A stretch of DNA of 64,000 nt from a virus. Taxonomy: Duplodnaviria > Caudoviricetes. The DNA lies in IMG/VR virus record IMGVR_UViG_3300028886_000001; one strand, 5' to 3'. This document shows positions 802-63,347 of the stretch, in pieces; position 1 is the first letter of the stretch; each line of letters opens with the position of its first letter. The notes beneath the pieces were generated by a model. It did no database searches. It was not told the origin of the DNA and saw nothing but the letters and a program-made list of their open reading frames with translations. The translations under genes and the position numbers were made by a program.

Positions 802-813
802 TATTCTTATGTT
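802..813 (-). promoter_or_regulatory. Putative late (nvRNAP) promoter AACA-N6-TA
   Basis: AACA-TAAGAA-TA upstream of sheath gene. Confidence 0.55.
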
Positions 814-821
814 ATTTTACA

Positions 822-1544
822 CTAAGTAGTTAGCAAGTTCTCCAATGGAACATATCTTGTGTTTTTGTTCATAGATGCGTTTAGGATGCCTTCATCCCAA
901 ACTTCACTAGTAATAGAGGTATAGGCAGTTATATATTTAGGTATAAGTCTAATATTAATACATATATATTCATTCATATTATTCATATTAGAATATCTAA
1001 ATGGTCTCTTTACATTATTAGGATCTCTAGCCATTTCTGATACTATAATACCATACATCTGCATATTTAATCCATAATCTCCTCCATTCATACGGACATT
1101 ATTAGGGAAATATTCATGTAGTTTATCATATGGTATAGTAGTAGGTAAATCGCCAGTCAATAATAATCTAAAAAATGTTTCTGCATTAGAAACCATCTCT
1201 GGTACATGTATAGAAGATATAACTTCATCACCTTTTTTAAACTTTAATATCCTATAGTCCTTAGCTTCTATATACTTTGTAAGCTTTACATTCTTTAATT
1301 TCTCTATACTATTAGGCTTACACATAAACATAGTAGGACAATTGAATCTTTTTAATCCTTTAGTCTTACCATTAGTATCAAATATAGCATAATCTAATAT
1401 ACCAAGTAAAGTTACATACTCACCATTTATTTCAGCTATATCTTTAGTAAAATAGCTTTCTGGTACATAGTATATAAGTTCTCCTTCTTGATTAAATAAT
1501 ATTCTCTCTCCATCTTTTTTTAAGAATGATGGTATCTTGCTCAT
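822..1544 (-). CDS. RNA polymerase beta-prime extreme C-terminal fragment (probable virion RNAP subunit)
   Basis: YGIIVSEMAR ~ HIEVIVRQM; TAYTSITSEVWDEGILNA ~ SFISAASFQETTRVLTEAA; PLENLL ~ GLKENVI; late motif at 1576-1587. Confidence 0.6.
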   Translation of the reverse strand: MSKIPSFLKKDGERILFNQEGELIYYVPESYFTKDIAEINGEYVTLLGILDYAIFDTNGKTKGLKRFNCPTMFMCKPNSIEKLKNVKLTKYIEAKDYRILKFKKGDEVISSIHVPEMVSNAETFFRLLLTGDLPTTIPYDKLHEYFPNNVRMNGGDYGLNMQMYGIIVSEMARDPNNVKRPFRYSNMNNMNEYICINIRLIPKYITAYTSITSEVWDEGILNASMNKNTRYVPLENLLTT

Positions 1545-1658
1545 ATATATTCACCTTCCTTTTAATTTACTTATATAAATGTGTGTTAAATATTTAAACA
1601 TATAAATAAAATTGTAATTAATATAAAATGTTTAACTCCTTCCTTAATATTTTAAAAA

Positions 1659-1686
1659 CCCAGTAAGCTATTATAAGCTTACTGGG
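1659..1686. terminator. Intrinsic terminator hairpin
   Basis: CCCAGTAAGCT-N6-AGCTTACTGGG with A/T tracts nearby. Confidence 0.7.
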
Positions 1687-1697
1687 ATATTTTTGTC

Positions 1698-2693
1698 TTA
1701 TATAGAAGGTGTTGTCAATATAACGATATCTCTAATATTAGCTATAGGAACTCTAATCATAGAATGTTCAAAATGTTCTGAGCAATCTACTACTAGACTA
1801 TATAGCTTACTATTATCAGATGATCTTATTATCTTTACTATCTTACCATAAACATGTTGAAGTTTTAATAGACTTGTATCTACATAATACATTTCTATTA
1901 TGTTTCCTTCTCTTATTATGATTTCTTTACATTCATTAGAAGCATATACAAATCTTAATCTTACAGATAAGATTGTTTCTTGTTCTACAAACATAACTGC
2001 TGTCTTATAAGATTCATTATTATCATTCATAGGTCTATTATCAAATGGTGTATTTGGATTATGATATCCACAATTACTATCATAATCATGACAATGATTA
2101 TGGTGATGATGACTATGGCATTTATCATATCCATGTGCATCATTATGATATACTGTTCTTGTATATTGTTCTCCATAACCATTATAAGACTCTGGTGTAT
2201 GAGTATGACCTTCTTCATAATCACATCCATATACATTATTAGGATCAAACAATGTATCATTTCCATCTTTATCATATCTATGGAATTGATTATGTTCATT
2301 ATAATCGTTAGGTGGTGGTGGATTATGATCTAAGGGACATCTATGAGGTGGTTCTGAAGCATAGTGATCATGACTACAACCATACTTGCTACAGTCTGGT
2401 CCTAATTTGAATTCTTTCATAAATATAGGATCATTAGGCTTTGGTGGTTTACATCTTCTATGATGATCTCTATGTAATATATGCATATATTCTCTATGAC
2501 TTAATGGTCTCATAGGAGTGCAAGGTGTTTCTACTTTATAAGCACTTTCAGGTATTTCTATGTCCTCTATAATATCTTCTTTAGGAATAGGGTCTATTGT
2601 TAAATCTGTAGATCCTTCGTTATTATTTCCAGTAGATGGTTGTTCCTCGGTTGGGTTCTCATCTACTGGAGTATTTTTATTTTCTTCATCCAT
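1698..2693 (-). CDS. His/Cys/Pro-rich low-complexity protein with globular C-terminal domain
   Basis: ORF track 1698..2765; start moved to MDEENK (2693) behind GGAGGT; late motif at 2739-2750. Confidence 0.7.
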   Translation of the reverse strand: MDEENKNTPVDENPTEEQPSTGNNNEGSTDLTIDPIPKEDIIEDIEIPESAYKVETPCTPMRPLSHREYMHILHRDHHRRCKPPKPNDPIFMKEFKLGPDCSKYGCSHDHYASEPPHRCPLDHNPPPPNDYNEHNQFHRYDKDGNDTLFDPNNVYGCDYEEGHTHTPESYNGYGEQYTRTVYHNDAHGYDKCHSHHHHNHCHDYDSNCGYHNPNTPFDNRPMNDNNESYKTAVMFVEQETILSVRLRFVYASNECKEIIIREGNIIEMYYVDTSLLKLQHVYGKIVKIIRSSDNSKLYSLVVDCSEHFEHSMIRVPIANIRDIVILTTPSI

Positions 2694-2794
2694 AATTTTA
2701 ACCTCCTTATAAATATATTTATAAGATCTTAAGACCTTTACTATATTGTTCACGTTTATATGCATGAATCAGTATAGTAAAGGTCTAGTTAAAA

Positions 2795-3916
2795 CTACTG
2801 TTTCTTTATTCCATTTTCTCTTATTAACTTAATTACTTCTTTTATATTATCTAATATTTCATTTCTAAAGTCACTCTTATCTGTCATGAATTCTAAATCT
2901 GCTATTAGTAATAGAGTATAATACATATAAGCATGCTCTACTAAATTATCTGGATGCATGTTTAATGTAATTCTCATAAATAAGATAAAGAATTCTTTTA
3001 TCTCATCTGCAGTATACTCTTCAACAGGTAATACTTTAGCTAATACTCTAGAAACAAGATTTATATCTTTAATTACCATCTTTGAATCTTTATATTTGTA
3101 ATTAAAGCTTGTACACATTCTATCGAAGTGTTTTAAATCCTTATCTAGTCTTCTTGCTACTTTATCTCCATTAGTTAAAGCTTCTTTTTGAAGTCTATAT
3201 GAATAAGAATCAATAAAACTAGCTTTTATCTCTCTAAACTTTTGAGCTTTATCAGGGAACTTCTCATCTAATTTCTTAGCATCATTTTCTAATGTAACAG
3301 TCATTCTTTCTTTTAATTCATCACCATACATATTAGCAAAGTTAAGTTTATCTATTTCATTAGTCAATGATTCTTGGAAGTCTATATATTCTTTATCCAT
3401 TAATAGATTAGATGCAAATTGTTCTATTAATATCTTAGCAGCAGCACCTAATTCTCTCATATCTGTAGATTGAGCCATGTTTCTTACTGTTTGTTGTAGA
3501 GATTCTGGCATAGCATTATATATACTAAACTTTTCTCCGTCTCTATATCTTTTTATTATACTTAGAATACAAGCAGCATCTTCATCTGATAAGTCATATA
3601 ACTTTTTATCATCATCAGATATTTCCATATCATCTGTAACTTGTTCCATCGGACTCTTATGTTCATCTACTAAATCTTCTAATGGTACTTGTTTAAAATC
3701 ATCAGCTTCATCTACAGGTCTAAATTGTTTTTCACCTGTTACTGGATCTACTGTTACTAATGCTTCTCCTTCTACTAGTTCTTTCTTAGTTTCTTCTTGT
3801 TTTACTTCTGGTTCTTTAGGACGACATTCAGAAGCAGTTTTTAATATTTCATTCATTTGAGCTTCTGTTAAATCATTAATATTAATTTGTCCTGCAGTAT
3901 TATTATTATTTTCCAT
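2795..3916 (-). CDS. Hypothetical protein (acidic N-terminus)
   Basis: 373-aa ORF with AAGGAG SD. Confidence 0.75.
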   Translation of the reverse strand: MENNNNTAGQININDLTEAQMNEILKTASECRPKEPEVKQEETKKELVEGEALVTVDPVTGEKQFRPVDEADDFKQVPLEDLVDEHKSPMEQVTDDMEISDDDKKLYDLSDEDAACILSIIKRYRDGEKFSIYNAMPESLQQTVRNMAQSTDMRELGAAAKILIEQFASNLLMDKEYIDFQESLTNEIDKLNFANMYGDELKERMTVTLENDAKKLDEKFPDKAQKFREIKASFIDSYSYRLQKEALTNGDKVARRLDKDLKHFDRMCTSFNYKYKDSKMVIKDINLVSRVLAKVLPVEEYTADEIKEFFILFMRITLNMHPDNLVEHAYMYYTLLLIADLEFMTDKSDFRNEILDNIKEVIKLIRENGIKKQ

Positions 3917-3931
3917 TTTCTGTACTCTCCT

Positions 3932-4711
3932 TTATATTAAACTATCTATATTCATATCTTCTACCATAGAGCAATTTTGTAATTCTAATTGTATATTAGA
4001 AAGTATAATTGATCTTATTGGAGATGATAGAATTGGAACTATTATTGTTTTATAGAAATCTCTATTAGGCATAAATATACTCTGTAAGAATTTAGATATA
4101 TTTTTATCGGCATATATTATATTAAGTATTATGTCAAATGATATATCTAAAGCCATCATTTGATTTACTACATAATCTATATTAGCAGATATAATAGCTA
4201 TCTTATTATTCTTATATAGCTTCTTAGAATAGATAGTTAGACTATCTTTTTCTTTTCTAAGTTCTTCTAATCTAAATGCTTCATATAAAGAATTCTTCTC
4301 TTTTATTATATAATTAGTATAGAATGCAGTTACATTCTTATCGAATGAAGATATTAATAAATCATATAAGTAATATGCAGCAGAATACTTATCTTGTATA
4401 TCATCTAAGTTATAGAATATATCAAATTTACTACATATTATCTCTATGCATTTACTATATACTTCATCTCTCTTATTTTTTATAGCTGCCATAGATTCTG
4501 TATCTGAATATATAGCAGATAGTTGTTTAAAGTAATCTTCAAATGATACTATTATATTTGGTTTATCTGTATTATAATATGTATACATGGTATTTATATT
4601 ATCCTCTATTAGACTATATAACAAGTCTTCATTTGATTGTGCTAGTATTATATTGATTTCGTTTTCTGTTTGTATATTGTACATTGTTGGATCTGACATG
4701 AATGAACTCAT
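3932..4711 (-). CDS. Hypothetical protein
   Basis: ORF track 3932..4777; start moved to MSSFMSD behind AGGAGG; late motif at 4739-4750. Confidence 0.75.
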   Translation of the reverse strand: MSSFMSDPTMYNIQTENEINIILAQSNEDLLYSLIEDNINTMYTYYNTDKPNIIVSFEDYFKQLSAIYSDTESMAAIKNKRDEVYSKCIEIICSKFDIFYNLDDIQDKYSAAYYLYDLLISSFDKNVTAFYTNYIIKEKNSLYEAFRLEELRKEKDSLTIYSKKLYKNNKIAIISANIDYVVNQMMALDISFDIILNIIYADKNISKFLQSIFMPNRDFYKTIIVPILSSPIRSIILSNIQLELQNCSMVEDMNIDSLI

Positions 4712-4783
4712 AAATTTATATCCTCCTTTTATTAAATATATTAATGTGTTTATGCCATGGTAAAAAAAGACAAGCATAGAGAT

Positions 4784-6841: not shown

Positions 6842-6867
6842 TATATTCCCTCCTTTTGTATATATAT

Positions 6868-6879
6868 TATAAAAATGTT
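6868..6879 (-). promoter_or_regulatory. Putative late promoter AACA-N6-TA
   Basis: AACA-TTTTTA-TA between a terminator hairpin and the fibre gene SD. Confidence 0.6.
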
Positions 6880-6923
6880 GAAAATAAAGAGAATGGGAGT
6901 TTAGCCCCATTCTCTTTAATATA

Positions 6924-8453: not shown

Positions 8454-8480
8454 TTGTTGTCACCTCGTTTTACAAAATTT

Positions 8481-8513
8481 AAATGACTATAGACGAATCT
8501 ATAGTCATTTTTT
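8481..8513. terminator. Intrinsic terminator hairpin
   Basis: AAATGACTATAGA-CGAA-TCTATAGTCATTT. Confidence 0.7.
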
Positions 8514-20680: not shown

Positions 20681-20692
20681 AACATCTAAATA
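20681..20692 (+). promoter_or_regulatory. Putative late promoter AACA-N6-TA
   Basis: AACA-TCTAAA-TA. Confidence 0.6.
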
Positions 20693-21174: not shown

Positions 21175-21246
21175 GTAATGTAAGCAATAGTTATTATACT
21201 ATTGCTTAAATGCTGTTTAACATTTTAGTGAACAAATGAAAGGAGT

Positions 21247-21715: not shown

Positions 21716-23839
21716 GTGATATATAAAGTGTTTTACTTAGAGAATTATGGCGATTATTCAGAGTTAATAAAGAACAAGCATATTACTATTGATATGAAAA
21801 CTATCAATAGAAATACTTGGCAGATGCATTATCAATCATTATTAAATATAATGAAAGATGGAATTGAAACTGAGTATATGAGACATCCAATCATTACATT
21901 ACATTTTGATGTAATAGATGTAGATATGGCTATACCAGATGTATGGTTTAATATGATGCTATGGTATGTATTAGTAGCAGTAGATAAAGAAATTAGACCA
22001 TGTGATATAGTATTTGAAGAAGATGGTACTACTGGTAATACTATAAAAAGATTTATGGATGATAAGTTCATAGATAATTATAGAACTATGATTGATAATG
22101 TCCAAATGAATAATATAATAGATGATTGTATGTATACATTTAGACATATAGATGATTTTAGTTTCTATATAGCAAATACTGTATCATTAGATGACTTTGT
22201 AGAATTAATGGATAAGAATCCAGAATTCTATGATCTAATGCATGCAGATTTATCTCATTTACCAATAGATCAAGTTAAGATAGAAGGTACTAAACTAGCA
22301 AATCGTTCTATTGAAATAATAAAGAACTCTGATCATTGTATGTCTAATTACTTTTTAGCAGGTGAAGGTATCAATCCAAAACAATATAAAGAATTAGCTA
22401 TACATATAGGTCCTAAACCTAATGGATTAGGAGGTGTATTCCCTACTATAATAAATCATAGTTATATAAATGGTGGGGTTAAAGATCCAATGGATTATGC
22501 TATAGAAGCTAGTACAGGAAGATTAGCACAGATTATAGTAGAAGGCAATGTTGGTACTGCAGGTGACTTTGCTAGATTATTAGGATTGAATTGTATGGAT
22601 ACTACATTACACAAAGATCCTAATTATATATGTGATACTAAACATTTCCAAGAAGTAACTATAACTGAAAGAACTTTTAAGTTATTCTTAAATAGATATT
22701 TCAGATTTAGAAAAGATGGATTGGAATATAAGATTACTAAGAAGATGAAGAAAGATCTTATAGGAAAAACTATACTTCTAAGAAGTCCAATGACTTGTGC
22801 TTCCGCTGCTAGAGGAGAAGGAATATGTTATAGATGTTATGGTGATTTAGCATATACTAATAAAGATATAAATCCAGGAAGATTATCTAGTGAAGAATTA
22901 TCATCTAGATTTACTCAAATGATGTTATCTGCTAAGCATTTATTAGAAGCATCTATAAGAAAGATTATATGGAGCAAAGACTTCTGGAAATATTTCGATG
23001 TAGAGTATAATATAATAACTTTAAAAGATGATTTTGACTATACTGGATATAGTATAAAGATCAATTTAGAAGATATTACATTAGAAAGAGATACAGAAGA
23101 AATTTCAGAAGGTCAATATAATGAATATATAACTTCATTTAAATTAATCTGTCCAGACGGAGACGAAATAGTATGTAATACAGCTAATGCAGATAATCTA
23201 TATATAGCTAATTCTATAAGCTCAGTTATGCAAGAATACGAAAAATCAACAAAAAAGCTTAAAGGAGTATATTCTGACGGAGAAGATATTATTATAAATC
23301 TAAATTTAATTCAAGAAAGAGACGGAATATTATTTGTAATGAATATCTTAAATAGTGATTTATCTTCTAATCTAAAGAGAGTTAAAGATATAATCAATAA
23401 GATAGAGATTACAAAGAATCTATCTAGACATGAATTATTAGAAAAGTTTAATGAAGGATTATTAGATAGTAAGATTAATCTTCAATCTGTTCATGCTGAA
23501 GTTATATTGATGAATCAGATGCGTAATGATGAGGATATTTTAGGAATGCCTAAATGGGAAAATCAAAATCCTCATTATCAGATCTTAACATTGATGCAAT
23601 CATTAGAGAACATACCTTATGTAACTAAGAGATTAAGTTATGCTAAAACAGCACAAGCATTAAGATCGCCTGTTACTTATAGATGCGAAAAACCATCTGC
23701 TATGGATGTATTCTATATGATAAATCCTCAGAAGTATATTAATAGTAAGATAGTTCCTGCTAAAGAACCAGAGTATGCTGAAAAAGGATTAAGAAAGATC
23801 TGGAATAAGATTGATAAAAATAAAGAAGAAGACGAATAA
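21716..23839 (+). CDS. Multisubunit RNA polymerase beta-prime C-terminal subunit (probable non-virion RNAP)
   Basis: Bridge helix VGTAGDFARLL, Zn site RSPMTC...GICYRCYG, trigger loop SRFTQMMLSAKH, VHAEVILMNQMR. Confidence 0.9.
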   Translation: MIYKVFYLENYGDYSELIKNKHITIDMKTINRNTWQMHYQSLLNIMKDGIETEYMRHPIITLHFDVIDVDMAIPDVWFNMMLWYVLVAVDKEIRPCDIVFEEDGTTGNTIKRFMDDKFIDNYRTMIDNVQMNNIIDDCMYTFRHIDDFSFYIANTVSLDDFVELMDKNPEFYDLMHADLSHLPIDQVKIEGTKLANRSIEIIKNSDHCMSNYFLAGEGINPKQYKELAIHIGPKPNGLGGVFPTIINHSYINGGVKDPMDYAIEASTGRLAQIIVEGNVGTAGDFARLLGLNCMDTTLHKDPNYICDTKHFQEVTITERTFKLFLNRYFRFRKDGLEYKITKKMKKDLIGKTILLRSPMTCASAARGEGICYRCYGDLAYTNKDINPGRLSSEELSSRFTQMMLSAKHLLEASIRKIIWSKDFWKYFDVEYNIITLKDDFDYTGYSIKINLEDITLERDTEEISEGQYNEYITSFKLICPDGDEIVCNTANADNLYIANSISSVMQEYEKSTKKLKGVYSDGEDIIINLNLIQERDGILFVMNILNSDLSSNLKRVKDIINKIEITKNLSRHELLEKFNEGLLDSKINLQSVHAEVILMNQMRNDEDILGMPKWENQNPHYQILTLMQSLENIPYVTKRLSYAKTAQALRSPVTYRCEKPSAMDVFYMINPQKYINSKIVPAKEPEYAEKGLRKIWNKIDKNKEEDE

Positions 23840-26878: not shown

Positions 26879-26890
26879 AACACATTAATA
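26879..26890 (+). promoter_or_regulatory. Putative late promoter AACA-N6-TA
   Basis: AACA-CATTAA-TA after terminator. Confidence 0.6.
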
Positions 26891-30763: not shown

Positions 30764-30817
30764 AATTATCATATGTAAACATATTAGTACTTATTAATAT
30801 AAGGGGGTTATAAATTT

Positions 30818-32265: not shown

Positions 32266-32730
32266 ATGATGAATATTGCGAGTATTAAATATGATTCTTT
32301 AGTAAATGGAGAAGGATTAAGAACAGTGGTATTTGCACAAGGATGCAAGCATAATTGTAAAGGATGTTTTAATCCACATACACATGAATTTGGTATTGGT
32401 AGAGATTATGAAGTAGAAGACTTATATAAGATAATTAAAGAAAATTGTCTTATGAAAAAAGTTACATTCTCTGGAGGAGATCCATTATATCAAGTAGAAG
32501 AATTTACTGAGTTAGCTAAATTATTAAAAGCAGATGGCTATAATATATGGTGCTATACTGGATTTACTATAGAAGAGATACAAAATGATGAAAATATGTC
32601 TAAGATATTAGATTATGTAGATGTAATAGTAGATGGTAAATTTGATGAATCTAAAGCAGGAGAGTATAAATATAAAGGTTCATCTAATCAAAGGATAATA
32701 AATATAAAGGAGAACATAGGAAATGAATAA
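32266..32730 (+). CDS. nrdG: Anaerobic ribonucleotide reductase activating protein (radical SAM)
   Basis: DSLVNGEGLR, QGCKHNCKGCFN, FSGGDP, WCYTG, GSSNQR. Confidence 0.95.
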   Translation: MMNIASIKYDSLVNGEGLRTVVFAQGCKHNCKGCFNPHTHEFGIGRDYEVEDLYKIIKENCLMKKVTFSGGDPLYQVEEFTELAKLLKADGYNIWCYTGFTIEEIQNDENMSKILDYVDVIVDGKFDESKAGEYKYKGSSNQRIINIKENIGNE

Positions 32731-35494: not shown

Positions 35495-35629
35495 TATTAT
35501 TCCTCCTTTATATATAAATTAATAAGATGTTGTCTAACCTTATTTCATTTTTGTGCGTTACTATACTAGATAAGGGTAAATACGTTGAACTATATAATAA
35601 CTATAAAACTTTGAAAGGAATGATATACA

Positions 35630-39499: not shown

Positions 39500-39511
39500 A
39501 ACAATATAATA
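39500..39511 (+). promoter_or_regulatory. Putative late promoter AACA-N6-TA
   Basis: AACA-ATATAA-TA before capsid gene. Confidence 0.65.
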
Positions 39512-39571: not shown

Positions 39572-41302
39572 ATGCCAGTTATAGGTACAAGACCAAGTGA
39601 TAAAAGAAACAATGGCAAAGGTTATTTAAAAGATCCAATGTGTAAATTAACTGAATCTTTTTTAAACGTTGCCCAAGATATTGTAAATGAAAATTCTGTA
39701 GATATGTTCAGACATCCTGATATGGCTCTTATGAGAGGTACTGCAAGTAGAGACGCTATGAAGAATTTCTTCTGCAAAAACTCTTGCGATAGATCTAGCA
39801 TGGATCCAGAAGAATATGATGATCATATGGAAATGATGAGCGAACAATTTGAAAATGATTGTGATGGTTTATCATCATTTAATGAATATGCTTCAATGAA
39901 TACTTTCAACCCAGTTATTGGTATGATGTTCCCAATACATAAGAATTTACTTATGAACTGTATCTTTGATAAAGGTGCAATTCCTAAAGTAGTAATGAAA
40001 TCTCCAAAAGAAACAGTTACTATGGAAACTAGATGGTTAGTTACTCCAAAGGGAGAAAAGATAGATCTTTATAGAGATCAAAGAAAGATAAGTGATGCTG
40101 TTCAAAGCACAAACCCATTTGTAGAAGTTCCAGTTATCTTACCAGAAACAGGAACTACAGATGTATTAGCTGCTATTGGTGGTAGTTCTTTAGATAATTT
40201 ATCTATTGAAACTTCAATTTCTGCTATAATGGTTGCAGAAGACCCAGCTCATAAATTAGCTGATGCTTCATCTGAAGAAGATAAGAAAGCTGCTTTAGAA
40301 GCAGGTACATGGATAGATGTAGATATGCAATTCGTTACATCATATATGGATTATGATAGAAGTGTTATCGACCATGTAACTTATGATGATGGTAAAGGAA
40401 CAGTTAAGACTATTTGTATTTCTGCTACAATGAAGGATAACAAATTCCAAGTTGTAGATATGCAAGGAAATGCTTTAGCTGTTAAGATTAAAGCAAGATT
40501 AGATAGCTCAAATGCTATGCTTGATACTTGTAAAGTAGAATGGTCTGCTAGAACTGACTTAATTGAAGTTGGACCTGGTATTCCAATAAACGTACCAATC
40601 TCTCCTGAAGAAGTTAAAGATATTGGTGCTTTATATCAAGTTAACCAATTAACTAAGATTATGTCTATGATTAAATTAGTTATGGAAAATACTAAGGATG
40701 ATGATATCAAAGGATATCTTGATCAAAACTTTAATACTATGCCAAAGACTGATAAGATTCACAGAGTATTTGACTTTGCTCCAAGAGAAGGTTATATGCT
40801 AGACCATGTTGAATGGAGACATAAGACTTTCTTAGATGCATTAGATACTTATGTAACAGATATGCTTACAGTATTAAATGATCCAAACATGACTGTTACT
40901 ATATTTGGTAGACCAGATATCATAAGAAAGATTACTCCTACTGAATATAGCTATCAAAGTCCAAATAGTATAGGACCTGTTGAACTTGAATTCAACAAGA
41001 CTATAATGACTTCTGATAAGAGAGTATATCAATTCATGTCTTCAACTAAATTAAATGGTTCAAATGAATTAATTATAATTCTTTGCCCAAGAAATAGTGA
41101 TAGAATTATATACAGAATTTATGATTATCAAATGTATGTATCAAATGAAATCAGAAATGCTGCTAATCCTTCATTACCAGCAGTTCATGCTTTCCAAAGA
41201 TACAAAGTATGGAGTTACCAACCAGTTCAAGGAAGAGTTACTATCTTAAACCCAACTGGATTAAAAGGAGCTTACGACAGCTTAGGTTTCTCAGGTGTTT
41301 AA
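39572..41302 (+). CDS. Major capsid protein precursor
   Basis: Position after protease and scaffold genes, size, optimised codons (TTC, AAC, GCT), late motif, strong terminator; start taken as ATG 39572. Confidence 0.7.
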   Translation: MPVIGTRPSDKRNNGKGYLKDPMCKLTESFLNVAQDIVNENSVDMFRHPDMALMRGTASRDAMKNFFCKNSCDRSSMDPEEYDDHMEMMSEQFENDCDGLSSFNEYASMNTFNPVIGMMFPIHKNLLMNCIFDKGAIPKVVMKSPKETVTMETRWLVTPKGEKIDLYRDQRKISDAVQSTNPFVEVPVILPETGTTDVLAAIGGSSLDNLSIETSISAIMVAEDPAHKLADASSEEDKKAALEAGTWIDVDMQFVTSYMDYDRSVIDHVTYDDGKGTVKTICISATMKDNKFQVVDMQGNALAVKIKARLDSSNAMLDTCKVEWSARTDLIEVGPGIPINVPISPEEVKDIGALYQVNQLTKIMSMIKLVMENTKDDDIKGYLDQNFNTMPKTDKIHRVFDFAPREGYMLDHVEWRHKTFLDALDTYVTDMLTVLNDPNMTVTIFGRPDIIRKITPTEYSYQSPNSIGPVELEFNKTIMTSDKRVYQFMSSTKLNGSNELIIILCPRNSDRIIYRIYDYQMYVSNEIRNAANPSLPAVHAFQRYKVWSYQPVQGRVTILNPTGLKGAYDSLGFSGV

Positions 41303-42933: not shown

Positions 42934-42981
42934 TTATTTTTTATGTGTGTATTAACACACATGTAGTTCAATATATAAGGA

Positions 42982-46211: not shown

Positions 46212-47039
46212 TTGATGTCGATAGCTGGCATGCTATCGACATATTTATTTAAGAGAGGTGTATTTGAATATATGGAGATGACATTCGATAATTATATAGT
46301 AAACCCTATGGGTATAAAGAATTCAGTATTTTCACAAAGAGAAATGTATAGAGAACTATACAGACAAAAGTTAGATAAGATATTAGTAAGAGAAGGAGGA
46401 AAGGTTAATTATAAATTATATAAAGATAAAGATAACTATTACGTTTGGTTTAAAATACCATCAGAAGTTATATCAAATTTTTATTATGATGTAGTAATAA
46501 AGTTTATACCTAAGTCTAATGCAGTTAAACTTACTAAATCATTAAAAGAGTATAATGTAAAGTTTTATTCTAATGACCCAGCATTTGTATTTACGTTTGC
46601 ATATGCTATGGAAAAGAATAAATTATTCATAGATGAACTAGCTCCAGTAATGAGTCAGGAAGCATTAAAAGAAAGAGCAAAAGAAAGGAATCCTAAATCA
46701 GAAGTAGGATATGTAAAATCATTATTCTTTGCTTATCTATTAATGAGACAATATAATCTATTTGACAAGTTATTATATGAAGAAAACGGGATATCTTTTA
46801 ATATCAAAGAATTATTATCTAAGATAACTCCTGCTGATAAGAAGATTAGAGATAGGCAAGAAGCACAGATAGAGCTTAATAAGAAAAATAGAATAGCAAA
46901 AGCTAAAGAAGCAAATAAAGAAAGAGACAAAGAAATGAAAACAACAAATAGTACAACTACATCTAAAATGACTAAGAATTTCAATATCAGTAAGAAGTCT
47001 AAAACTGTAGGAAGAATAAAAAGAACAAAGAAATTTTAA
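46212..47039 (+). CDS. Hypothetical protein with basic C-terminal tail
   Basis: Likely true start MEMTF behind GAGGTG; FYYDVVIKF, FYSNDPAFVFTFAY. Confidence 0.7.
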   Translation: MMSIAGMLSTYLFKRGVFEYMEMTFDNYIVNPMGIKNSVFSQREMYRELYRQKLDKILVREGGKVNYKLYKDKDNYYVWFKIPSEVISNFYYDVVIKFIPKSNAVKLTKSLKEYNVKFYSNDPAFVFTFAYAMEKNKLFIDELAPVMSQEALKERAKERNPKSEVGYVKSLFFAYLLMRQYNLFDKLLYEENGISFNIKELLSKITPADKKIRDRQEAQIELNKKNRIAKAKEANKERDKEMKTTNSTTTSKMTKNFNISKKSKTVGRIKRTKKF

Positions 47040-47051
47040 ATTATATATTAT
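47040..47051 (+). promoter_or_regulatory. Putative early promoter
   Basis: ATTATATATTAT directly after the upstream stop codon. Confidence 0.7.
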
Positions 47052-47056
47052 TATAC

Positions 47057-48595
47057 ATGGAGGGGATAGAATTGCAAAAGATATGGAAATATGTACCTAC
47101 ACAAGAATTCATAAAAATAGATGATTGGAAACCAGAAGAAGAAGACAAAGTATTTAAACACGTTAAAAGGGCAATCATATTGCCAATACAAGAAGTATTA
47201 GGTTTAGAACCAGGAACAGCTGATTTTCTTGATAGTTTTGTGTTGCCTAAGAAAGGACATAATTCAATAAAGATAAGAAATCACATGACACATTATTTAA
47301 ACTATTTTGAAAAATTCTATGATCAAGATCATGAACTTTTAACAGTATATTCACAGATAAAATATATCATGGATATAAAGGTTAAATATTCAGAAGATCA
47401 GTTATTCTTTGATATTAAAAGATATCTATTCAATCCGTCATTAATGCTTAAATTAAGATTCTTAAATGACGATAACTATTGCTTAAATCTTACTTATGTA
47501 AATAAGAAAGAAGCAGCATTACAATATACTAATAGACATGCTAAGATGCTAATGAAACTTAGTTTTATGATGTTAATGGCATTACCATTGGTAAACCATT
47601 ATTCATATATTCATAAGAAAGACACAAACTTCTTAGTATTGAAATTATTTGATGAAGCATCATTGATGTTCTCATCTGTAGATATATATAGTAAACTATA
47701 CGAAACAGCATATAGTAATATATCTAATAATGAAAAGGTAAATCCTATATGGCAAAATCAAGATATTAGAGGTATAAATGTTACAACTCATACTCTAGCA
47801 TCTGTACGTAATATCATTGTCAATATAATACCTAAATATGTATACAATATGAATATAATCAATATGAACTTCGCTTCTATAAAGAAGAATATTGGTTATC
47901 AGATAACTGATATCAGTTATGAATATGAATTTAGACCTTTATCATCTACTAATAGAGATGAAGATAATAATAGTGAATATGATAAATTTGAATCATATCT
48001 TACTAAGTTTAATGAATCTGCATATCTATTCAATAAAGTAAATGGTAAATATGTATATGATTGTATAATGAAGGAATTTGGTCCTATAAGTAAGAAGGAA
48101 TATGATCTTTACTATTCTGAACTAGCTAAAGCTACTAATAGTGAAATAGTTCATCCATTCCAAGAAGAATTAGTATTCTATACATTCCTTGATAAATTTA
48201 GTGATCCTGCATGTATAAGATCACTACATAGAACGGATTATGTTAATCTCGTAATATGTGCTAAACGATATTTATTAAAGAAGAACTTCACTATCTTACC
48301 ATATATAGTGGGAGGTAGAATATTAAGGTTGGTTACTAAGAAAGGTTTAACTGATCAAATATTTACTAGAATGTCTAAATCGGAAGAATATAAACTCATT
48401 ATAGAAAAGTATGGTGATAATAACCGTGCTTTAATAGATTATATGCATTCTTTATGGGCTACAATCATGGCATCGGATTTCTCTGTCATAGATTCAGAAC
48501 GTAAAGAGATAAATGGAAAGTTAATAAATAAGGGTATAAACAATGTTCAACAAATTCTTGAAGAAGAACTTATGAGGTTTACTCTTATGATATAA
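47057..48595 (+). CDS. Putative nvRNAP promoter-specificity (sigma-like) subunit, AR9 gp226/phiKZ gp68 type
   Basis: About 500 aa, helical, own early promoter, two genes downstream of the chaperonin (AR9 gp228/gp226 order, from recall); probable TTG start at 47072. Confidence 0.5.
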   Translation: MEGIELQKIWKYVPTQEFIKIDDWKPEEEDKVFKHVKRAIILPIQEVLGLEPGTADFLDSFVLPKKGHNSIKIRNHMTHYLNYFEKFYDQDHELLTVYSQIKYIMDIKVKYSEDQLFFDIKRYLFNPSLMLKLRFLNDDNYCLNLTYVNKKEAALQYTNRHAKMLMKLSFMMLMALPLVNHYSYIHKKDTNFLVLKLFDEASLMFSSVDIYSKLYETAYSNISNNEKVNPIWQNQDIRGINVTTHTLASVRNIIVNIIPKYVYNMNIINMNFASIKKNIGYQITDISYEYEFRPLSSTNRDEDNNSEYDKFESYLTKFNESAYLFNKVNGKYVYDCIMKEFGPISKKEYDLYYSELAKATNSEIVHPFQEELVFYTFLDKFSDPACIRSLHRTDYVNLVICAKRYLLKKNFTILPYIVGGRILRLVTKKGLTDQIFTRMSKSEEYKLIIEKYGDNNRALIDYMHSLWATIMASDFSVIDSERKEINGKLINKGINNVQQILEEELMRFTLMI

Positions 48596-49997: not shown

Positions 49998-51212
49998 ATG
50001 GCTGGTAAATTTATAAATACTAATCATCAAGAAACTATAGAGAATCTTATAAAAAGTCAAGTAGATCAATATAGAGCTCCATATTATAAACACCAAGACA
50101 AGCAATGCATATATGCTACTTATTATAATCAAAACTTAGATATGTCTACTCAAGATGAAGGTAGTGCATTACAAAATCAATTCATTGGTAGTGAGAGCCC
50201 ATTAAGATTTAATAAGATATATAACTTTTGTATGCTTGGAATGGAGAAAATATCTGCAGCATTAGAGAATGGTGAATATGGATTAGAATCATCTCCTATA
50301 GAAGGGGATTTAATAGTTATGCCTGATACTATTATACCTGTAGCTAATGATTATTTTATTATAGACCATGTACAACAGCATAAAGAACAAAAGAAGTTAA
50401 TATTTAAAGTAACACAAGTAGATGCTGATTCTCTAGATGATGGTTCTAGAGAATTCAAAGTTAGTTATAAACTAGATAGAGTTGGAGAAGAAGAAATAGA
50501 CAGACAAGTAGTAGAAGAGTATACTATGATTATAGATAATAATGAAACTCAATATAAATCTATAATAAAGAAAGTAGACTATGACTTAGTAAATGATTTA
50601 GGTGGTTTATGTAGAAATCTATGTAAATATTATAAGTCTCTATTCTATTCCCCTAGAGTAGATACATTTATATTTAGACATAATGGATATAATATGTATG
50701 ATCCTTATATGATAGAATTCTTAATAAGAAATGAAGTATTATCTTATGATGATGATTATCTATTCATAAATCATAAGTGTTCTAAACTTGCTACATTTCC
50801 TCTAGACTATAATAAGACTATATTTGCATTCTTAGAAGATAAAAATAGAAAGGGTAATCCTTTGATATATAGTCAAGGATTTCCTATATTAGAACCTTTA
50901 TCCGTATTTGATTGTAGAATGGAGCCTTATTTTAAGATAGAATATTGTAATGAAGTATTCGATAGAGGTAGAGGAATAATAAATAATTTCAATGAAGAAT
51001 TATTTGAAAGATGTAATACTAATACTTATTATTTAGAAGAAAAAGATAGGTATAAAAATGTGATAATACGTTACTTTAACAATGGCAAAATTGGAAAAGA
51101 TGATATATTAGATATAGAGTCCATGCAGTATAGTAATGATATTGAATTTTTTTATAATATCCCGATAATAATATACATATTAGGATTAAAAGTCGCAGAA
51201 TTAATGAAATAA
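49998..51212 (+). CDS. Probable virion structural (head-tail joining) protein
   Basis: Start MAGKF behind AAGGAGGT; TYYNQN...SPLRFNKI...TIIPVANDYF pattern. Confidence 0.5.
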   Translation: MAGKFINTNHQETIENLIKSQVDQYRAPYYKHQDKQCIYATYYNQNLDMSTQDEGSALQNQFIGSESPLRFNKIYNFCMLGMEKISAALENGEYGLESSPIEGDLIVMPDTIIPVANDYFIIDHVQQHKEQKKLIFKVTQVDADSLDDGSREFKVSYKLDRVGEEEIDRQVVEEYTMIIDNNETQYKSIIKKVDYDLVNDLGGLCRNLCKYYKSLFYSPRVDTFIFRHNGYNMYDPYMIEFLIRNEVLSYDDDYLFINHKCSKLATFPLDYNKTIFAFLEDKNRKGNPLIYSQGFPILEPLSVFDCRMEPYFKIEYCNEVFDRGRGIINNFNEELFERCNTNTYYLEEKDRYKNVIIRYFNNGKIGKDDILDIESMQYSNDIEFFYNIPIIIYILGLKVAELMK

Positions 51213-51253
51213 CATATAGATAAAATTCTTATTAAAAAGGAGGAATTTAAGCC

Positions 51254-51942: not shown

Positions 51943-53625
51943 TTAGAATTCTGGTACTCCTAATTGCTTCTCTGTTTCTGGTAATGCTAAAGTTAATGCA
52001 TATGCAGATTCTATAGCTTCTTTAGCAGATGTTCTTATATTCATGCCTCCTAAAGATACATAATGTGCTTTAGAGTTAGAATATTCTTTAAGTTCAGCAT
52101 TAGATTCATCAGTAAATGCTATCTTAGCTGTACATTGGTCTCCGTCATAGTCTCCTCCGATACCTTCTAGATATAGATTACATATTCTTAATGTATCTAC
52201 AAAAGAACTACTTGTATTAGTTCTTATATCTTCTTGCCTTATCTTTGGATAAAACTTATAATATTCATTACCTATAACCATAGGTTCTGTTTCTACAGTA
52301 GATGATACTTCTACTAATGTAGGGAATTGGTTAAAGTATGTATCCATAGGATAACGTGTGATTAATACATATTTGCCTTTTACAGCTTCTTTAGCAGCCC
52401 TAAATATTAAATCACACCAAGTTAAATCTCTATCTACTATACTGCTTTTACCTGTTAATTCTTTATCTAATTTTTCTGCATCACTTACATCTAATTCATT
52501 TAATCTTTCATTAATATGTCTTCCAACAAATCTCATATGTATTTTATACCCTTCTACAGATTCAACCTCTACTGGAATAAATCTATTAGAATAGCCATGG
52601 CAAAATCTATCTATTTCTTTTTTCAATCTAGCATCTGAGAATTGTTCTAATGGATCTTTTATTTGAACATTCTTTATACTTCCATCTTTATCTATCATTG
52701 GATACGATGCAGTACCTGAAAATTCATTTTCAAAGAAACGTCTTAAATAGAATATAATAAATGGGTATACATTACTACATAAAGATGCCAATGGTACAGC
52801 AGAATAGTCTAAGTTAACCATCATATCATCTACATGCTCTACTCTTAAATCTGGAGCAGATAGTACTAATCTAGATGCATAATCTGCTGTCTTAGACATA
52901 TTAGCTCTTCTTAATATACCATATTTCTTAGACATACCAGTACCATTCGAATCAGCATTTCCTGGCATTGAACCATCTACAAACCATTGATATATAGCAA
53001 GTAATGTTTCTTGTATTCTTCCATTAGTAGCATCTGATAAAGATATACCAAAGTCTTGTGTTTCTTTTTTACTCTTTACAGCCATTATAAGATTATCATA
53101 TAATTTATTTACATCTCCTAGAGAAACATAATGTCCATTATTGTTTACATCTCTATAATATGCTGGGATTACTATCATCTGTTTAATAAATAGCTTATCT
53201 CTAAATTTATTTAGATAAGCAACTTTATCATTATTCTTTATAGATGTAGTAGTCTTAAACTTAATCTTGTCTATATTTTGCTTTAAGAAGTTAATACCTG
53301 TTTTACCGTTCTCATCATCTACTATATTTCCTTTAGCATCTAATGACACCATTCTTTTACCATGAACTATATCTCTTACTCTTCCATCTATCGAATTCCA
53401 TATCTTATATGCAAATGGATGTAAGAACCAATCTGATAAATCTATATAAGCAAATATATTAGCTCTCTCTTCTTTAGTAATACCAAATATTTCATTAGAT
53501 AATAAACCATCATCAGTTGGTATTCCAGTAGAAGAGAAGTATATAGAATTTGTAATCTCCTTTAAATCATTAACCTTTATCAACTTATCTGGTTCTAAAG
53601 GTTCTATTTCTAAATATCTATCCAT
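51943..53625 (-). CDS. Multisubunit RNA polymerase beta-prime N-terminal catalytic subunit (probable virion RNAP)
   Basis: DGLLSNEIFG, VIPAYYRD, KYGILRRANMSKTADYASRLVL, ITRYP, catalytic GGDYDGDQ; late motif at 53642-53653. Confidence 0.9.
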   Translation of the reverse strand: MDRYLEIEPLEPDKLIKVNDLKEITNSIYFSSTGIPTDDGLLSNEIFGITKEERANIFAYIDLSDWFLHPFAYKIWNSIDGRVRDIVHGKRMVSLDAKGNIVDDENGKTGINFLKQNIDKIKFKTTTSIKNNDKVAYLNKFRDKLFIKQMIVIPAYYRDVNNNGHYVSLGDVNKLYDNLIMAVKSKKETQDFGISLSDATNGRIQETLLAIYQWFVDGSMPGNADSNGTGMSKKYGILRRANMSKTADYASRLVLSAPDLRVEHVDDMMVNLDYSAVPLASLCSNVYPFIIFYLRRFFENEFSGTASYPMIDKDGSIKNVQIKDPLEQFSDARLKKEIDRFCHGYSNRFIPVEVESVEGYKIHMRFVGRHINERLNELDVSDAEKLDKELTGKSSIVDRDLTWCDLIFRAAKEAVKGKYVLITRYPMDTYFNQFPTLVEVSSTVETEPMVIGNEYYKFYPKIRQEDIRTNTSSSFVDTLRICNLYLEGIGGDYDGDQCTAKIAFTDESNAELKEYSNSKAHYVSLGGMNIRTSAKEAIESAYALTLALPETEKQLGVPEF

Positions 53626-53675
53626 ATTATAACCTCCTTTTTAATAAAATGTTTAGGATAGATAGCATTTGCTAT

Positions 53676-54148: not shown

Positions 54149-54150
54149 TT

Positions 54151-56027: not shown

Positions 56028-56115
56028 TCTATTTAACCCCCTTTGTATTCGACTATTATTTTGTTTAATGTATTTTTTTATACTTTAATTCATTTACATA
56101 AGTTAAAATAACAAA

Positions 56116-56127
56116 AACATCTAATTA
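56116..56127 (+). promoter_or_regulatory. Putative late promoter AACA-N6-TA
   Basis: AACA-TCTAAT-TA, same as the 16195 copy. Confidence 0.65.
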
Positions 56128-56152
56128 AATTGATATAAGGAGGTAATATATT

Positions 56153-60482: not shown

Positions 60483-60488
60483 TCTTAA

Positions 60489-60522
60489 AGACCTAGTGAG
60501 AAATCACTAGGTCTATTTTTTT
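60489..60522 (+). terminator. Intrinsic terminator
   Basis: AGACCTAGTGA-GAAA-TCACTAGGTCT then T7. Confidence 0.85.
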
Positions 60523-60588
60523 ACGTTAAATATAACTTACGAGTGTTAAAAGAATAATAGAACTTCATATGTTCTAATATATTTTTTA

Positions 60589-60600
60589 ATTATATATTAT
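60589..60600 (+). promoter_or_regulatory. Putative early promoter
   Basis: ATTATATATTAT-ACATGT-G then TGATTAC/GTAATCA hairpin. Confidence 0.75.
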
Positions 60601-60651
60601 ACATGTGATTACAATGTAATCATAAAATTTATTTTAAGGAGGTTGATCTAA

Positions 60652-60813
60652 ATGATCAATGTTAAAAGATTAGAATGGTTTAAAAACGGAGGAGTTGAAG
60701 AACAATTTGAATGTATGAACGACATCACACAAATGTATGAAGAGATTGCTAAATCTATAAGACGTAAACTACTTGAAAGGTATAGCTATTTATCTGATAT
60801 AGTTATACATTAA
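60652..60813 (+). CDS. Small early protein (53 aa)
   Basis: Not in ORF track. TAAGGAGGT SD; MINVKRLEWFKNGGVEEQFECMNDITQMYEEIAKSIRRKLLERYSYLSDIVIH. Confidence 0.7.
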   Translation: MINVKRLEWFKNGGVEEQFECMNDITQMYEEIAKSIRRKLLERYSYLSDIVIH

Positions 60814-60907
60814 ATCGCTAGTAATAATTTATTATGAAAACGTATATATATAGAGCCACATGTCTGGCTCTATTTTTTTTAAAATATAATTTAAAGGAGA
60901 AAAAATA

Positions 60908-61936
60908 ATGATTAAGTTAATAAGTAATGATGAGAAAAAATTAGCAGAATTGGCAAAGAGGAATACTTATATTATACGATATATAGAAAACCCTACAGAA
61001 GATATGCAGTTAGATTTTGTACGTAAAATTGGTTATAATATACAAGGTATAAAAAACCCTACAGAAAAAGTAAAATTAGAAGCGGTAAAACAAAATGGTT
61101 CTTCTATAAAATATATAAAAAAACCTTCAAAAGAAGTACAATTAGCAGCCGTAAGGGAAGATGGCTATGCTATAGAATATATAAGTGATCCATCAGAAGA
61201 GATACAATTAGAAGCGGTAAAACAAAATGGTTCTTCTATAAAATATATAAAAAACCCTTCAAAAGAAGTACAATTAGAAGCAGTTAAACAAAATGGCTAT
61301 GCTATACAATATATAAGCGATCCATCAGAAGAAGTACAATTAGAAGCGGTAAAACGAAATGGATGTGTTATAGAATATATAGAAAACCCATCAGAAGAAG
61401 TACAATTAGCTGCTATAAAACGAGATAGTTATATTATACGATGTATAAATGAACCTTCAGAAGAGATACAATTAGCTGCCGTAAAACGAAATGGATGTGT
61501 TATAGAATATATAGAAAACCCATCAGAAGAAGTACAATTAGAAGCAGTTAAACAAAATTGCTGTGCTATAGAATATATAAGCGATCCATCAGAAGAAGTA
61601 CAATTAGAAGCAGTTAAACAACGATACCCACATGTAGTAGAAAATATTAAAATAAAATTATGTGAAAAAGCGACTGATTATCTTATAAATAATCCTATAG
61701 AGATGTATAAGATTACTAATAATATGTATGTCTTTAAAACAACAGGAAGAGATGTTGTATGTGAATATAAAGATAATCAATGGTATTATAGTTTAGGATG
61801 TCAGTATAATATAACAAAAGATGTATTTATTGATAGAATATATAATGATGGAGAAGGTGATCCTGATAAGTTCCCACATAGAAAACAGTATTTAGAAGTT
61901 ATAGATTATGTAGAAAATTTGGATATGAATAAGTAA
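60908..61936 (+). CDS. DUF4116-like 22-residue tandem repeat protein
   Basis: About 10-11 copies of I.YI.NPSEEVQLEAVKQNG (66-bp unit) plus C-terminal LGCQ domain. Confidence 0.8.
   Translation: MIKLISNDEKKLAELAKRNTYIIRYIENPTEDMQLDFVRKIGYNIQGIKNPTEKVKLEAVKQNGSSIKYIKKPSKEVQLAAVREDGYAIEYISDPSEEIQLEAVKQNGSSIKYIKNPSKEVQLEAVKQNGYAIQYISDPSEEVQLEAVKRNGCVIEYIENPSEEVQLAAIKRDSYIIRCINEPSEEIQLAAVKRNGCVIEYIENPSEEVQLEAVKQNCCAIEYISDPSEEVQLEAVKQRYPHVVENIKIKLCEKATDYLINNPIEMYKITNNMYVFKTTGRDVVCEYKDNQWYYSLGCQYNITKDVFIDRIYNDGEGDPDKFPHRKQYLEVIDYVENLDMNK
60975..61622 (+). repeat. 66-bp coding tandem repeat
   Basis: Recurring CC(A/T)TCAGAAGAAGTACAATTAGAAGC...AAAC. Confidence 0.9.
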
Positions 61937-61940
61937 TATA

Positions 61941-61952
61941 ATTATATATTAT
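61941..61952 (+). promoter_or_regulatory. Putative early promoter
   Basis: ATTATATATTAT-ATAGAA-G. Confidence 0.7.
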
Positions 61953-61988
61953 ATAGAAGTAATATAAATATTAATGGAGGGAATTAAA

Positions 61989-62432
61989 ATGAGTGAAATA
62001 ATTATTGAAAGAACAAAATCAAATATCCCATGTATATGGGAATCAGGAGGTGCTTATACAAACACAGCAAACTGTGTTATGGTATGTAATATGTACGGTA
62101 ATCCTAAAAAACCAGTATATATAACAAAACATGGTCCAAGAGCATGTGGTGATCATGCTTTAATACCAATCAGAGAAAATGACTATACAATAAGTATGAC
62201 TAAAGATAGATATGGTATGAATGCTAGCATATATAAAATTATTAAAATCAATGATAATAATACATGTGAAGTAGAAAGAATAAATCAATACATAGAAGAT
62301 GAAGATAATGAAATAAGAGGTTGGACAGAAGAGTATGATCCTATGTTTGATAATGTTATTCAAGCAGGTAAAGAAAAAATGAATGATTATCATTGTAGAA
62401 ATCCATATTATATAATAGAGGGGGAAATATAA
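61989..62432 (+). CDS. Hypothetical protein
   Basis: Start MSEII behind GGAGGG; WESGGAYTNT, YHCRNPYY. Confidence 0.75.
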   Translation: MSEIIIERTKSNIPCIWESGGAYTNTANCVMVCNMYGNPKKPVYITKHGPRACGDHALIPIRENDYTISMTKDRYGMNASIYKIIKINDNNTCEVERINQYIEDEDNEIRGWTEEYDPMFDNVIQAGKEKMNDYHCRNPYYIIEGEI

Positions 62433-63080
62433 ATGATTTATGTAACACTAGGTAGATTAAGAAAGAACGGGCATAATATAAAACTTATAGAAAACCCAAC
62501 TATAGAGGAACAATTAGTAGCAGTTAGTGCTAATGGCTATGCTATACAATATATAAACGAACCTTCTGAGGAAATACAATTAGCTGCTATAAATAATGAG
62601 GCAGATGCTATAAAGTATATAAAAGATCCTTCAGAAGAGATAAAAAGAAAAGCTGTTAGAAATAAATCTACATCTATAAAGTATATAAAGAATCCTTCTA
62701 AGGATATACAACTATTATCAATTAGACAAGATCCAAAAAATATACATTTTATAGAAAATCCATGTAAAGATGCTGTATTAGAAGCTTTAAAACATGGAGT
62801 AGGTATTAATAATATAGAGTCTACTTACATGACTAAAGTATATATAAAGAAATTCTTTAGTGTTCTTACTGAAGATGAGCTTTTTTATGTATTACAAGAA
62901 ATATTCTTATATAGAAATAAGAATGAAAAAATAAATGATGCAATAAAATGGGCTATGACATTCGGAGAAGAATATGATCTAAATATTTATAATAGGATAG
63001 TAGATAAATATGGAGAAGTGCAAGAAGGAGTAGATTATAAAATATATGGAAAAAGTTATGAGGAGGATGACGAATGTTAA
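62433..63080 (+). CDS. DUF4116-like repeat protein (paralogue of 60908..61936)
   Basis: About five degenerate IQYINEPSEEIQLAA repeats. Confidence 0.75.
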   Translation: MIYVTLGRLRKNGHNIKLIENPTIEEQLVAVSANGYAIQYINEPSEEIQLAAINNEADAIKYIKDPSEEIKRKAVRNKSTSIKYIKNPSKDIQLLSIRQDPKNIHFIENPCKDAVLEALKHGVGINNIESTYMTKVYIKKFFSVLTEDELFYVLQEIFLYRNKNEKINDAIKWAMTFGEEYDLNIYNRIVDKYGEVQEGVDYKIYGKSYEEDDEC

Positions 63081-63298
63081 TAGTATATATGATATTCTTT
63101 ACACTTAATGCTTTACTACTAATTTATACTATTGTAGGATCAATATGTATATATAAGGATAAGAATAAAGGAACAATACTTATTAGATTGGATAAAGGTA
63201 AAGTAGTTAGATGGTTAGGAAGAATAGCTAAAATAGATTTTGCAGCTATGATAATTCAGATTATATTATTAATCATTACTGGTGTAATGAATATATAA
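63074..63298 (+). CDS. Small two-TM membrane protein
   Basis: Two hydrophobic segments, GAGGAGG SD. Confidence 0.7.
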   Translation: MLIVYMIFFTLNALLLIYTIVGSICIYKDKNKGTILIRLDKGKVVRWLGRIAKIDFAAMIIQIILLIITGVMNI

Positions 63299-63335
63299 AG
63301 AAAGCTTGAACAGCTTTCTTTTTTATTTTTTGGTG

Positions 63336-63347
63336 AACATTTTAGTA
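63336..63347 (+). promoter_or_regulatory. Putative late promoter AACA-N6-TA
   Basis: AACA-TTTTAG-TA after terminator. Confidence 0.6.

Follow-up and report, generated by a model that had tools for sequence, protein, structure and literature searches.

A pig-gut jumbo phage that very probably reads the AR9 late promoter on thymine DNA

Introduction

Does the late promoter of phage AR9, AACA-N6-T(A/G), imply uracil DNA in every phage that carries it? The question is raised by IMG/VR record IMGVR_UViG_3300028886_000001 (Duplodnaviria; Caudoviricetes), from which a stretch of 64,000 nucleotides (the window) was analyzed together with the rest of the record. An earlier sequence-only reading of the window had recognized this promoter and proposed a uracil-DNA phage with uracil-gated transcription. 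We find it very probable, judging from gene content and protein sequence, that the phage belongs to a thymine-DNA sister clade of the AR9-like phages, in which the polymerase recognizes the AR9 promoter but has no uracil gate. Thymine-making enzymes are present and the uracil-DNA enzymes are absent, so the promoter is probably read on ordinary DNA. The record is complete (213,202 bp, terminal repeats, 28% G+C), and 62 of its 205 gene calls have AR9 homologues. Its source is an uncultured giant phage of the pig gut; an identical copy of its dCTP deaminase (Dcd) is recorded in 45 public assembly blocks, among them pig-gut metagenomes of PRJEB11755.

The late promoter is enriched upstream of genes

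All 21 late promoter sites listed earlier are present (11 on the plus strand, 10 on the minus strand), each with a same-strand start codon 28-72 nt downstream. Minus-strand sites are numbered from the lower end of the 12-mer, which puts their first A at +11.

16195..16206, plus strand: late promoter AACA-N6-TR, start 41 nt downstream
18643..18654, plus strand: late promoter behind a terminator-like hairpin, start 41 nt downstream
20681..20692, plus strand: late promoter, start 62 nt downstream
21219..21230, plus strand: late promoter in the TG form, start 37 nt downstream
26879..26890, plus strand: late promoter ahead of an SF2 helicase homologue
30778..30789, plus strand: late promoter, start 40 nt downstream
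39500..39511, plus strand: late promoter ahead of the homologue of the AR9 major head protein (39572-41302)
42954..42965, plus strand: late promoter, start 37 nt downstream
51211..51222, plus strand: late promoter ahead of a 41-aa open reading frame
56116..56127, plus strand: late promoter ahead of an 867-aa protein
63336..63347, plus strand: late promoter of dcd, behind a terminator-like hairpin
802..813, minus strand: late promoter, start at 69 nt
1576..1587, minus strand: late promoter, start at 43 nt
2739..2750, minus strand: late promoter, start at 57 nt
4739..4750, minus strand: late promoter, start at 39 nt
6868..6879, minus strand: late promoter, start at 38 nt
13106..13117, minus strand: late promoter, start at 40 nt
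15316..15327, minus strand: late promoter in the TG form, ahead of a family B DNA polymerase subunit
35520..35531, minus strand: late promoter ahead of a prohead protease homologue
53642..53653, minus strand: late promoter ahead of the virion RNA polymerase beta-prime N subunit
56054..56065, minus strand: late promoter ahead of a baseplate wedge homologue

The positional enrichment on which the sequence-only reading had staked its case is borne out. Of 204 upstream regions in the genome, 62 contain the motif, compared with 11.0±3.1 in shuffles (maximum 23 of 1000) and 4 on the antisense strand; in the window the count is 18 of 60 versus 3.2±1.7 in dinucleotide shuffles (maximum 10 in 1000 shuffles), with none antisense. 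Density is 11.3/kb upstream versus 0.54/kb in coding sequence (21-fold, p 3e-50), and the distance to the start codon peaks at 35-45 nt. Only the six-base spacer is enriched: at 25-50 nt before starts, N6 accounts for 60 sites, N5 for 5 and N7 for 4. The T-purine tail emerges without being imposed, as requiring only AACA at 30-46 nt yields T in 55 and a purine in 59 of 66 cases. An origin of the motif by chance in AT-rich intergenic DNA, or a role as a site for a host sigma factor, as its shortness and its 246 genome copies (most of them not in front of genes) might suggest, is rejected statistically by these counts and by their strand and spacer specificity; the genome also encodes the cognate polymerase and a gp226 homologue, and we leave this explanation next to no probability.

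The motif agrees with the AR9 late consensus mapped by differential RNA sequencing (PMC5312081), and a uniform test gave similar results for the two phages (57/187 versus 8.9 expected here, 66/246 versus 11.8 in AR9), the strict consensus being alike. A at -11 stays the rule here, with slight relaxation at most (T 12 versus 6.6, C 5 versus 2.1). Sites were said to lie often right after a terminator, and a hairpin with a T-run does precede 9 of the 21. The AACT variants exist, those at 15355 and 35588 being on the plus strand, but AACT-N6-TR was rejected as a second promoter class because it shows no enrichment genome-wide (9 versus 7.2).

In pooled relatives, AACT-N6-TR is enriched (33 versus 18). 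Genes of phage phiR1-37, for which no late consensus had been found (PMC5312081), are also enriched upstream for AACA-N6-T(A/G) (17/79 versus 3.2; loci L158-L161, 80 kb sampled), as are those of LPJP1 (14/74 versus 3.2); MarsHill is not (4/54 versus 2.3).

Nucleotide metabolism points to thymine DNA

Uracil DNA (U-DNA) requires the absence of thymidylate synthase/Thy1 and of dUTPase (PMC7824862). Outside the window, the genome encodes a 392-aa ThyX (G000:C1:75257-76435, plus strand; E 5e-31) that passes the TIGR02170 cut-off. Its FAD- and dUMP-binding motifs align with those of solved ThyX enzymes, and its catalytic residues are at least 98% conserved in 120 homologues. This protein (L001:886-2064) has a 130-aa insertion that is specific to the clade and has conserved residues of its own; the RHR-x6-SxR motif is found in 111 of the 120 homologues.

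The second enzyme lies at the end of the window:

63383..64000, plus strand, running past the window end to 64153: dcd, trimeric dCTP deaminase of 256 aa (signature S95, F110, D112, Q139)

The best PDB matches of this Dcd are bifunctional Dcd:dUTPases (2QXX, 4XJC and 1OGH; E 1e-19 for 2QXX, compared with E 4e-6 for the monofunctional E. coli enzyme). It keeps the equivalents of Mycobacterium tuberculosis Ser102, Asp119 and Gln148 and has Phe at the position of the monofunctional Arg126 (compare PMC3360063). Given this bifunctional signature, the enzyme should form dUMP and destroy dUTP. Roughly 80 additional aa at the C-terminal end lie outside the family match. Among plasmid records, the closest are dcd genes carried by megaplasmids of Aneurinibacillus and Paenibacillus (60% identity).

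The sequence-only reading had taken dcd as a sign of uracil DNA. The Dcd enzymes of PBS1 and phiR1-37 belong to a Zn-dependent family unrelated to trimeric Dcd (PMC12697855), so the gene found here, coming from another family, argues for thymine. Zn-type Dcd (PF00383) is found in 6/6 AR9-type reference phages and is absent here. The same distribution holds for the AR9 HAD 5'(3')-deoxyribonucleotidase, which we infer to be the candidate dTMP phosphatase of PBS1 (Dtm_PBS1) and which answers the earlier suggestion to look for dTMP-removing enzymes: 6/6 references have it and this genome does not, in a search by homology to the AR9 protein that covered neither non-homologous enzymes nor the phiR1-37 Dtt. 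Among 45 relatives (see below) it is weakly present in one. The references have no match to ThyX, ThyA or the PF00692 dUTPase, and in the genome studied here searches for a stand-alone dUTPase, ThyA and NrdD found none. The phage departs from the uracil phages in five traits: it encodes a thymidylate synthase, its Dcd is predicted to have dUTPase activity, it lacks the Zn-type Dcd and the candidate dTMP phosphatase, and its promoter pocket differs (see below). The sequence-only reading had itself named thymidylate synthase plus dUTPase as grounds for abandoning uracil DNA, and on sequence the genome has ThyX and a Dcd whose signature is that of a dUTP-hydrolysing, dUMP-forming enzyme. Ugi gave no match here and equally none in the control phages LPJP1, MarsHill and phiR1-37; uracil-DNA glycosylase was found in none of 50 records.

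The phage would thus have its own dTTP supply, in which Dcd:dUTPase converts dCTP to dUMP and removes dUTP and ThyX makes dTMP. Protection from restriction may come from a Dam-type methylase and site avoidance in place of uracil. A Dam-family methylase is encoded at G000:C1:66354-66710 and in none of four references, and the observed/expected ratio (O/E) of GATC is 0.59 here versus 0.86 in AR9, 0.89 in LPJP1, 0.82 in MarsHill and 0.65 in phiR1-37, CATG being low in all. CGCG, GCGC, GGCC and CCGG are nearly all avoided genome-wide (O/E 0-0.14), and one relative (G020) has no GATC in 39 kb.

Two RNA polymerases and a probably rebuilt promoter pocket

The genome encodes four split beta/beta-prime subunits of a non-virion RNA polymerase (nvRNAP) with a gp226 homologue, and an AR9-like virion RNA polymerase.

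47072..48595, plus strand: gp226-like promoter-specificity subunit, 507 aa (blastp, profile, fold, synteny)
47039..47058, plus strand: AR9-type early promoter motif AATT[AG]TATATTAT-N6-G, ahead of the gp226 homologue
21728..23839, plus strand: homologue of the nvRNAP beta-prime C-terminal subunit, with both early and late motifs upstream
51943..53625, minus strand: virion RNA polymerase beta-prime N-terminal subunit, catalytic DxDGD motif

The gp226 homologue was identified by blastp (E 5e-12), by a hidden Markov model (E 2e-28), by HHalign (probability 99.9), by a predicted structure (pLDDT 91) that matches 7S01_A (E 1e-14), and by a gene neighbourhood shared with AR9 (groEL-gp227-gp226-primase); its identity to AR9 gp226 is only 23%. 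The virion beta-prime subunit at 51943-53625 is about 28-31% identical to those of LPJP1, the AR9/PBS1 group, staphylococcal jumbo phages and phiR1-37, its nearest matches.

The early motif, which matches the AR9 early consensus (PMC5312081), has 33 genome copies, 28 of them with the final G. It precedes the gp226 homologue and three of the four non-virion core subunit genes, and the late motif precedes most of the virion RNA polymerase subunits checked; this distribution over the polymerase genes is the AR9 logic. The statement that units lacking the late motif mostly carry the early one was too strong: among 41 window genes with a gap of at least 40 nt, 22 have the late motif only, 6 the early only, 2 both and 11 neither. 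Every feature of AR9-type nvRNAP late promoters that can be examined from sequence is found here. By analogy with AR9, the virion polymerase would first transcribe the early-motif genes, including most non-virion subunits and the gp226 homologue. The resulting non-virion holoenzyme would initiate RNA at the purine of AACA-N6-T(A/G), reading the template strand, and its late targets would be structural, replication and virion-polymerase genes.

In AR9 gp226, V206 keeps the thymine methyl group out at -10, the V206G change lifts this exclusion, and V206 has been called absolutely conserved among uracil phages (PMC9209446). It is invariant across 6/6 AR9-type references. Here Pro225-Ile226-Trp227 aligns with AR9 Val206-Ile207-Trp208, with a one-residue deletion immediately before, so that the invariant V206 and conserved 2.1bis helix of uracil phages give way to Pro225 and the deletion. 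Across 120 homologues plus AR9, the position-206 column contains Pro (39), Gly (24), Val (20), Ile (8) and others, the next two positions staying Ile/Leu and Trp. Of the two beta-N residues that line the -10 uracil pocket in AR9, R363, invariant in the references, is Met here; K375 is kept here and varies among the references. From the replacement of V206 by Pro with the deletion, the change of R363 to Met and the variation of the column within the clade, we infer that the -10 pocket has been rebuilt free of uracil constraint, and it presumably takes the thymine methyl group with K375 kept. Uracil-gated transcription, as the sequence-only reading had it, finds no support in the proline at position 206 or in the free variation of that position in the clade. 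Residue 206 as a marker of base type was itself rejected: Val co-occurs with ThyX seven times, so the residue alone is not diagnostic of the base.

A clade with thymidylate synthases

Relatives were found by an alignment search with gp226 (a single-sequence locus search with it gave none). The clade is large, with 257 gp226 homologues; 45 large virus records were examined. ThyX is encoded by 32 relatives and ThyA by 8, never both (40/45), compared with 0/6 references. Five encode neither enzyme; a dUTPase is found in three of these, and two are less than 80% complete (one record falls in both groups). Of the ThyX carriers, 15 have the trimeric Dcd but no separate dUTPase; this phage is one of them, and all 15 show the aromatic signature. 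A further 16 have a separate dUTPase but no Dcd, and none has both, a pattern consistent with Dcd taking the place of dUTPase. As the genomes are related, these counts are not independent events. In 39-kb samples, five relatives with Pro, Gly or Lys at position 206 show promoter enrichment, which is marginal in three others and absent in two.

Virion RNA polymerase trees place the clade in one group (support 96/96 and 100/100), separate from the AR9-type references, with phiKZ-like phages as outgroup. A single clade of uracil phages received support of 72/27 and an approximately unbiased (AU) test p of 0.41 (two trees plus the AU test). The phage collection holds no cultured member of the clade; Fusobacterium phage JD-Fnp1 (ON464759.1, L167) was considered as one and rejected because it has no gp226 match. 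It lies near the clade on a long branch, and searches for gp226, ThyA, trimeric Dcd and HAD nucleotidase gave no match in it.

Several relatives differ from the rest. The samples of G013 (L040) and G005 (L026) show a weak AACA promoter or none, and the late consensus of these two may have shifted. A sub-branch of G002 (L021), G006 (L027) and G022 (L054) has no thymidylate synthase match; in G002 and G006 a dUTPase adjoins a Zn-type deaminase, and G022 has none of the enzymes searched for. G002 keeps Val206, yet shows no AACA enrichment in 39 kb.

Ordinary thymine, uracil or a modified base

Several points weigh against ordinary thymine DNA. The ThyX is atypical: it carries the insertion, and its motif is a residue short of that in solved structures. 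Val206 is kept in seven ThyX-carrying relatives, and proline retains a beta carbon. The need of AR9 for uracil at -11 stems from DNA geometry and not from V206, and no feature seen here accounts for T at -11. Palindrome avoidance failed to separate thymine from uracil genomes. Finally, U-DNA is measured in AR9/PBS1 and phiR1-37, reported for BpSp and presumed for LPJP1, MarsHill and SA1.

Could the genome nevertheless be uracil DNA with uracil-gated late transcription, its ThyX inactive or otherwise employed? The AACA consensus is as strict as in AR9, the closest cultured relatives are AR9/PBS1-type phages, and the atypical ThyX, the kept K375 and an AR9-like nucleotide-monophosphate kinase would suit such a genome. 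We nonetheless consider it very unlikely, since the ThyX active-site residues are conserved family-wide and ThyX and ThyA are interchangeable across the clade; Dcd carries the dUTP-destroying signature where Zn-type Dcd and HAD nucleotidase are missing; and V206 and R363 have become Pro and Met. U-DNA often fails in standard libraries (bioRxiv 2020.12.14.422802), so the recurrence of the identical Dcd in 45 public assembly blocks also speaks, though weakly, against it.

Slightly better placed, though still improbable, is a genome in which the unusual ThyX gives rise to a modified thymine, or to T mixed with U, and the promoter pocket reads that base. SPO1 offers a precedent in its base-gated promoters on modified U, and both the conserved residues of the clade-specific ThyX insertion and the shortened motif could be seen in this light. 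Against it stand the eight relatives that have ThyA in place of ThyX, the lack of a common constraint on position 206 and the low dUTP level expected with a Dcd:dUTPase; moreover, no recognizable thymine-modifying enzyme appears in the Pfam matches listed (one list being the best 25 of 28 families).

Ordinary thymine DNA is thus our preferred reading. From the sequence-only reading, the AR9-type late promoter, the gp226 candidate, the presence of dcd and the jumbo phage with two RNA polymerases all stand, and it was likely right to caution that the motif could persist in a relative with T-DNA. How the clade arose is a separate matter. It is conceivable, though we doubt it, that a uracil-DNA ancestor reverted to thymine by gaining ThyX/ThyA and a dUMP source, losing the uracil-making enzymes and the gate, and keeping the promoter, a course that the trees neither favour nor contradict; if true, a genome would have passed naturally from U to T while its promoter reading changed to match. 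More simply, thymine may be ancestral and the uracil gate an addition in the AR9 line.

We found no account of a thymine-DNA AR9-like clade with this promoter in a literature search that left subscription journals mostly outside. The literature consulted associates AACA-N6-T(A/G) and close homologues of gp226 with uracil genomes, a link that this clade seems to break; uracil DNA should accordingly be predicted from nucleotide-metabolism genes and not from the motif or gp226. The clade offers natural polymerases for probing thymine tolerance at -10 and -11 and the gain versus loss of the gate, and the five polymerase subunits can be expressed although no cultured member was found.

Other gene content and host

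The host is plausibly a clostridial gut anaerobe, in keeping with the Clostridium-like host first suggested: NrdG is closest to Clostridioides phages, the samples are from pig gut, the amidase is closest to Firmicute phages, and some clade homologues are labelled as proteins of Paraclostridium metagenome-assembled genomes. The NrdG-like radical SAM activase lies at window positions 32266-32730, and NrdD was not detected in the genome. Two further window genes have AR9 counterparts:

15594..16157, plus strand: nucleotide-monophosphate-kinase-like protein, homologue of the AR9 'guanylate kinase'
13157..15256, minus strand: family B DNA polymerase subunit, followed in AR9 but not here by the HAD deoxyribonucleotidase gene

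Pfam matches among genes g001-g049 and g160-g205 include an ATLF-type metallopeptidase domain (PF07737, E 3e-10), a Tad2-like anti-Thoeris domain (PF11195), Kelch proteins and an alpha-amylase domain. No tRNA was found in the scanned genome parts outside the window, and Rfam gave no match in the window. Tubulin was not found in the genome by a search that was also blank for Noxifer; a close relative encodes a tubulin/FtsZ-family protein (G011:C1:192780-193250).

Comparison with known systems

With AR9/PBS1 (Takahashivirus; PDB 7S01, 7UM0, 7UM1; PMC9209446, PMC5449584, PMC5312081) the phage shares the late AACA-N6-TA/G promoter, the AT-rich early motif ending in N6-G, split beta and beta-prime subunits in both polymerases, and the gp226 fold and neighbourhood. 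It differs in having ThyX, a dUMP-type Dcd and Dam, in lacking Zn-type Dcd and HAD nucleotidase, and in belonging to a separate, well-supported clade. phiR1-37, LPJP1, vB_BpuM-BpSp, MarsHill and SA1 have the RNA polymerase lineage in common with it but, unlike it, have all retained the T-x-Y-x-D-x-V-I-W pocket together with Zn-type Dcd and HAD nucleotidase.

The engineered AR9 gp226 V206G (PMC9209446) has likewise lost the valine that excludes thymine at -10, and Gly occurs naturally in 24 of 120 homologues. The mutant relieves -10 only, whereas a thymine phage must take T at -11 too, and the change here is Pro with a deletion. The bifunctional Dcd:dUTPases of M. tuberculosis, B. halodurans and M. 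jannaschii conserve the same Ser, Asp, Gln and aromatic residue; the Dcd described here is phage-encoded, carries the extra C-terminal part of about 80 aa, and has a predicted activity. Lastly, the phiKZ-like phages (Chimalliviridae) also combine thymine DNA with two multisubunit RNA polymerases, and the four tested carry ThyA. Their nvRNAP protein gp68 is a weaker structural match to the gp226 homologue (8QUE, E 9e-7), and they differ in their late promoter, TATG, and in their position as outgroup of the tree.

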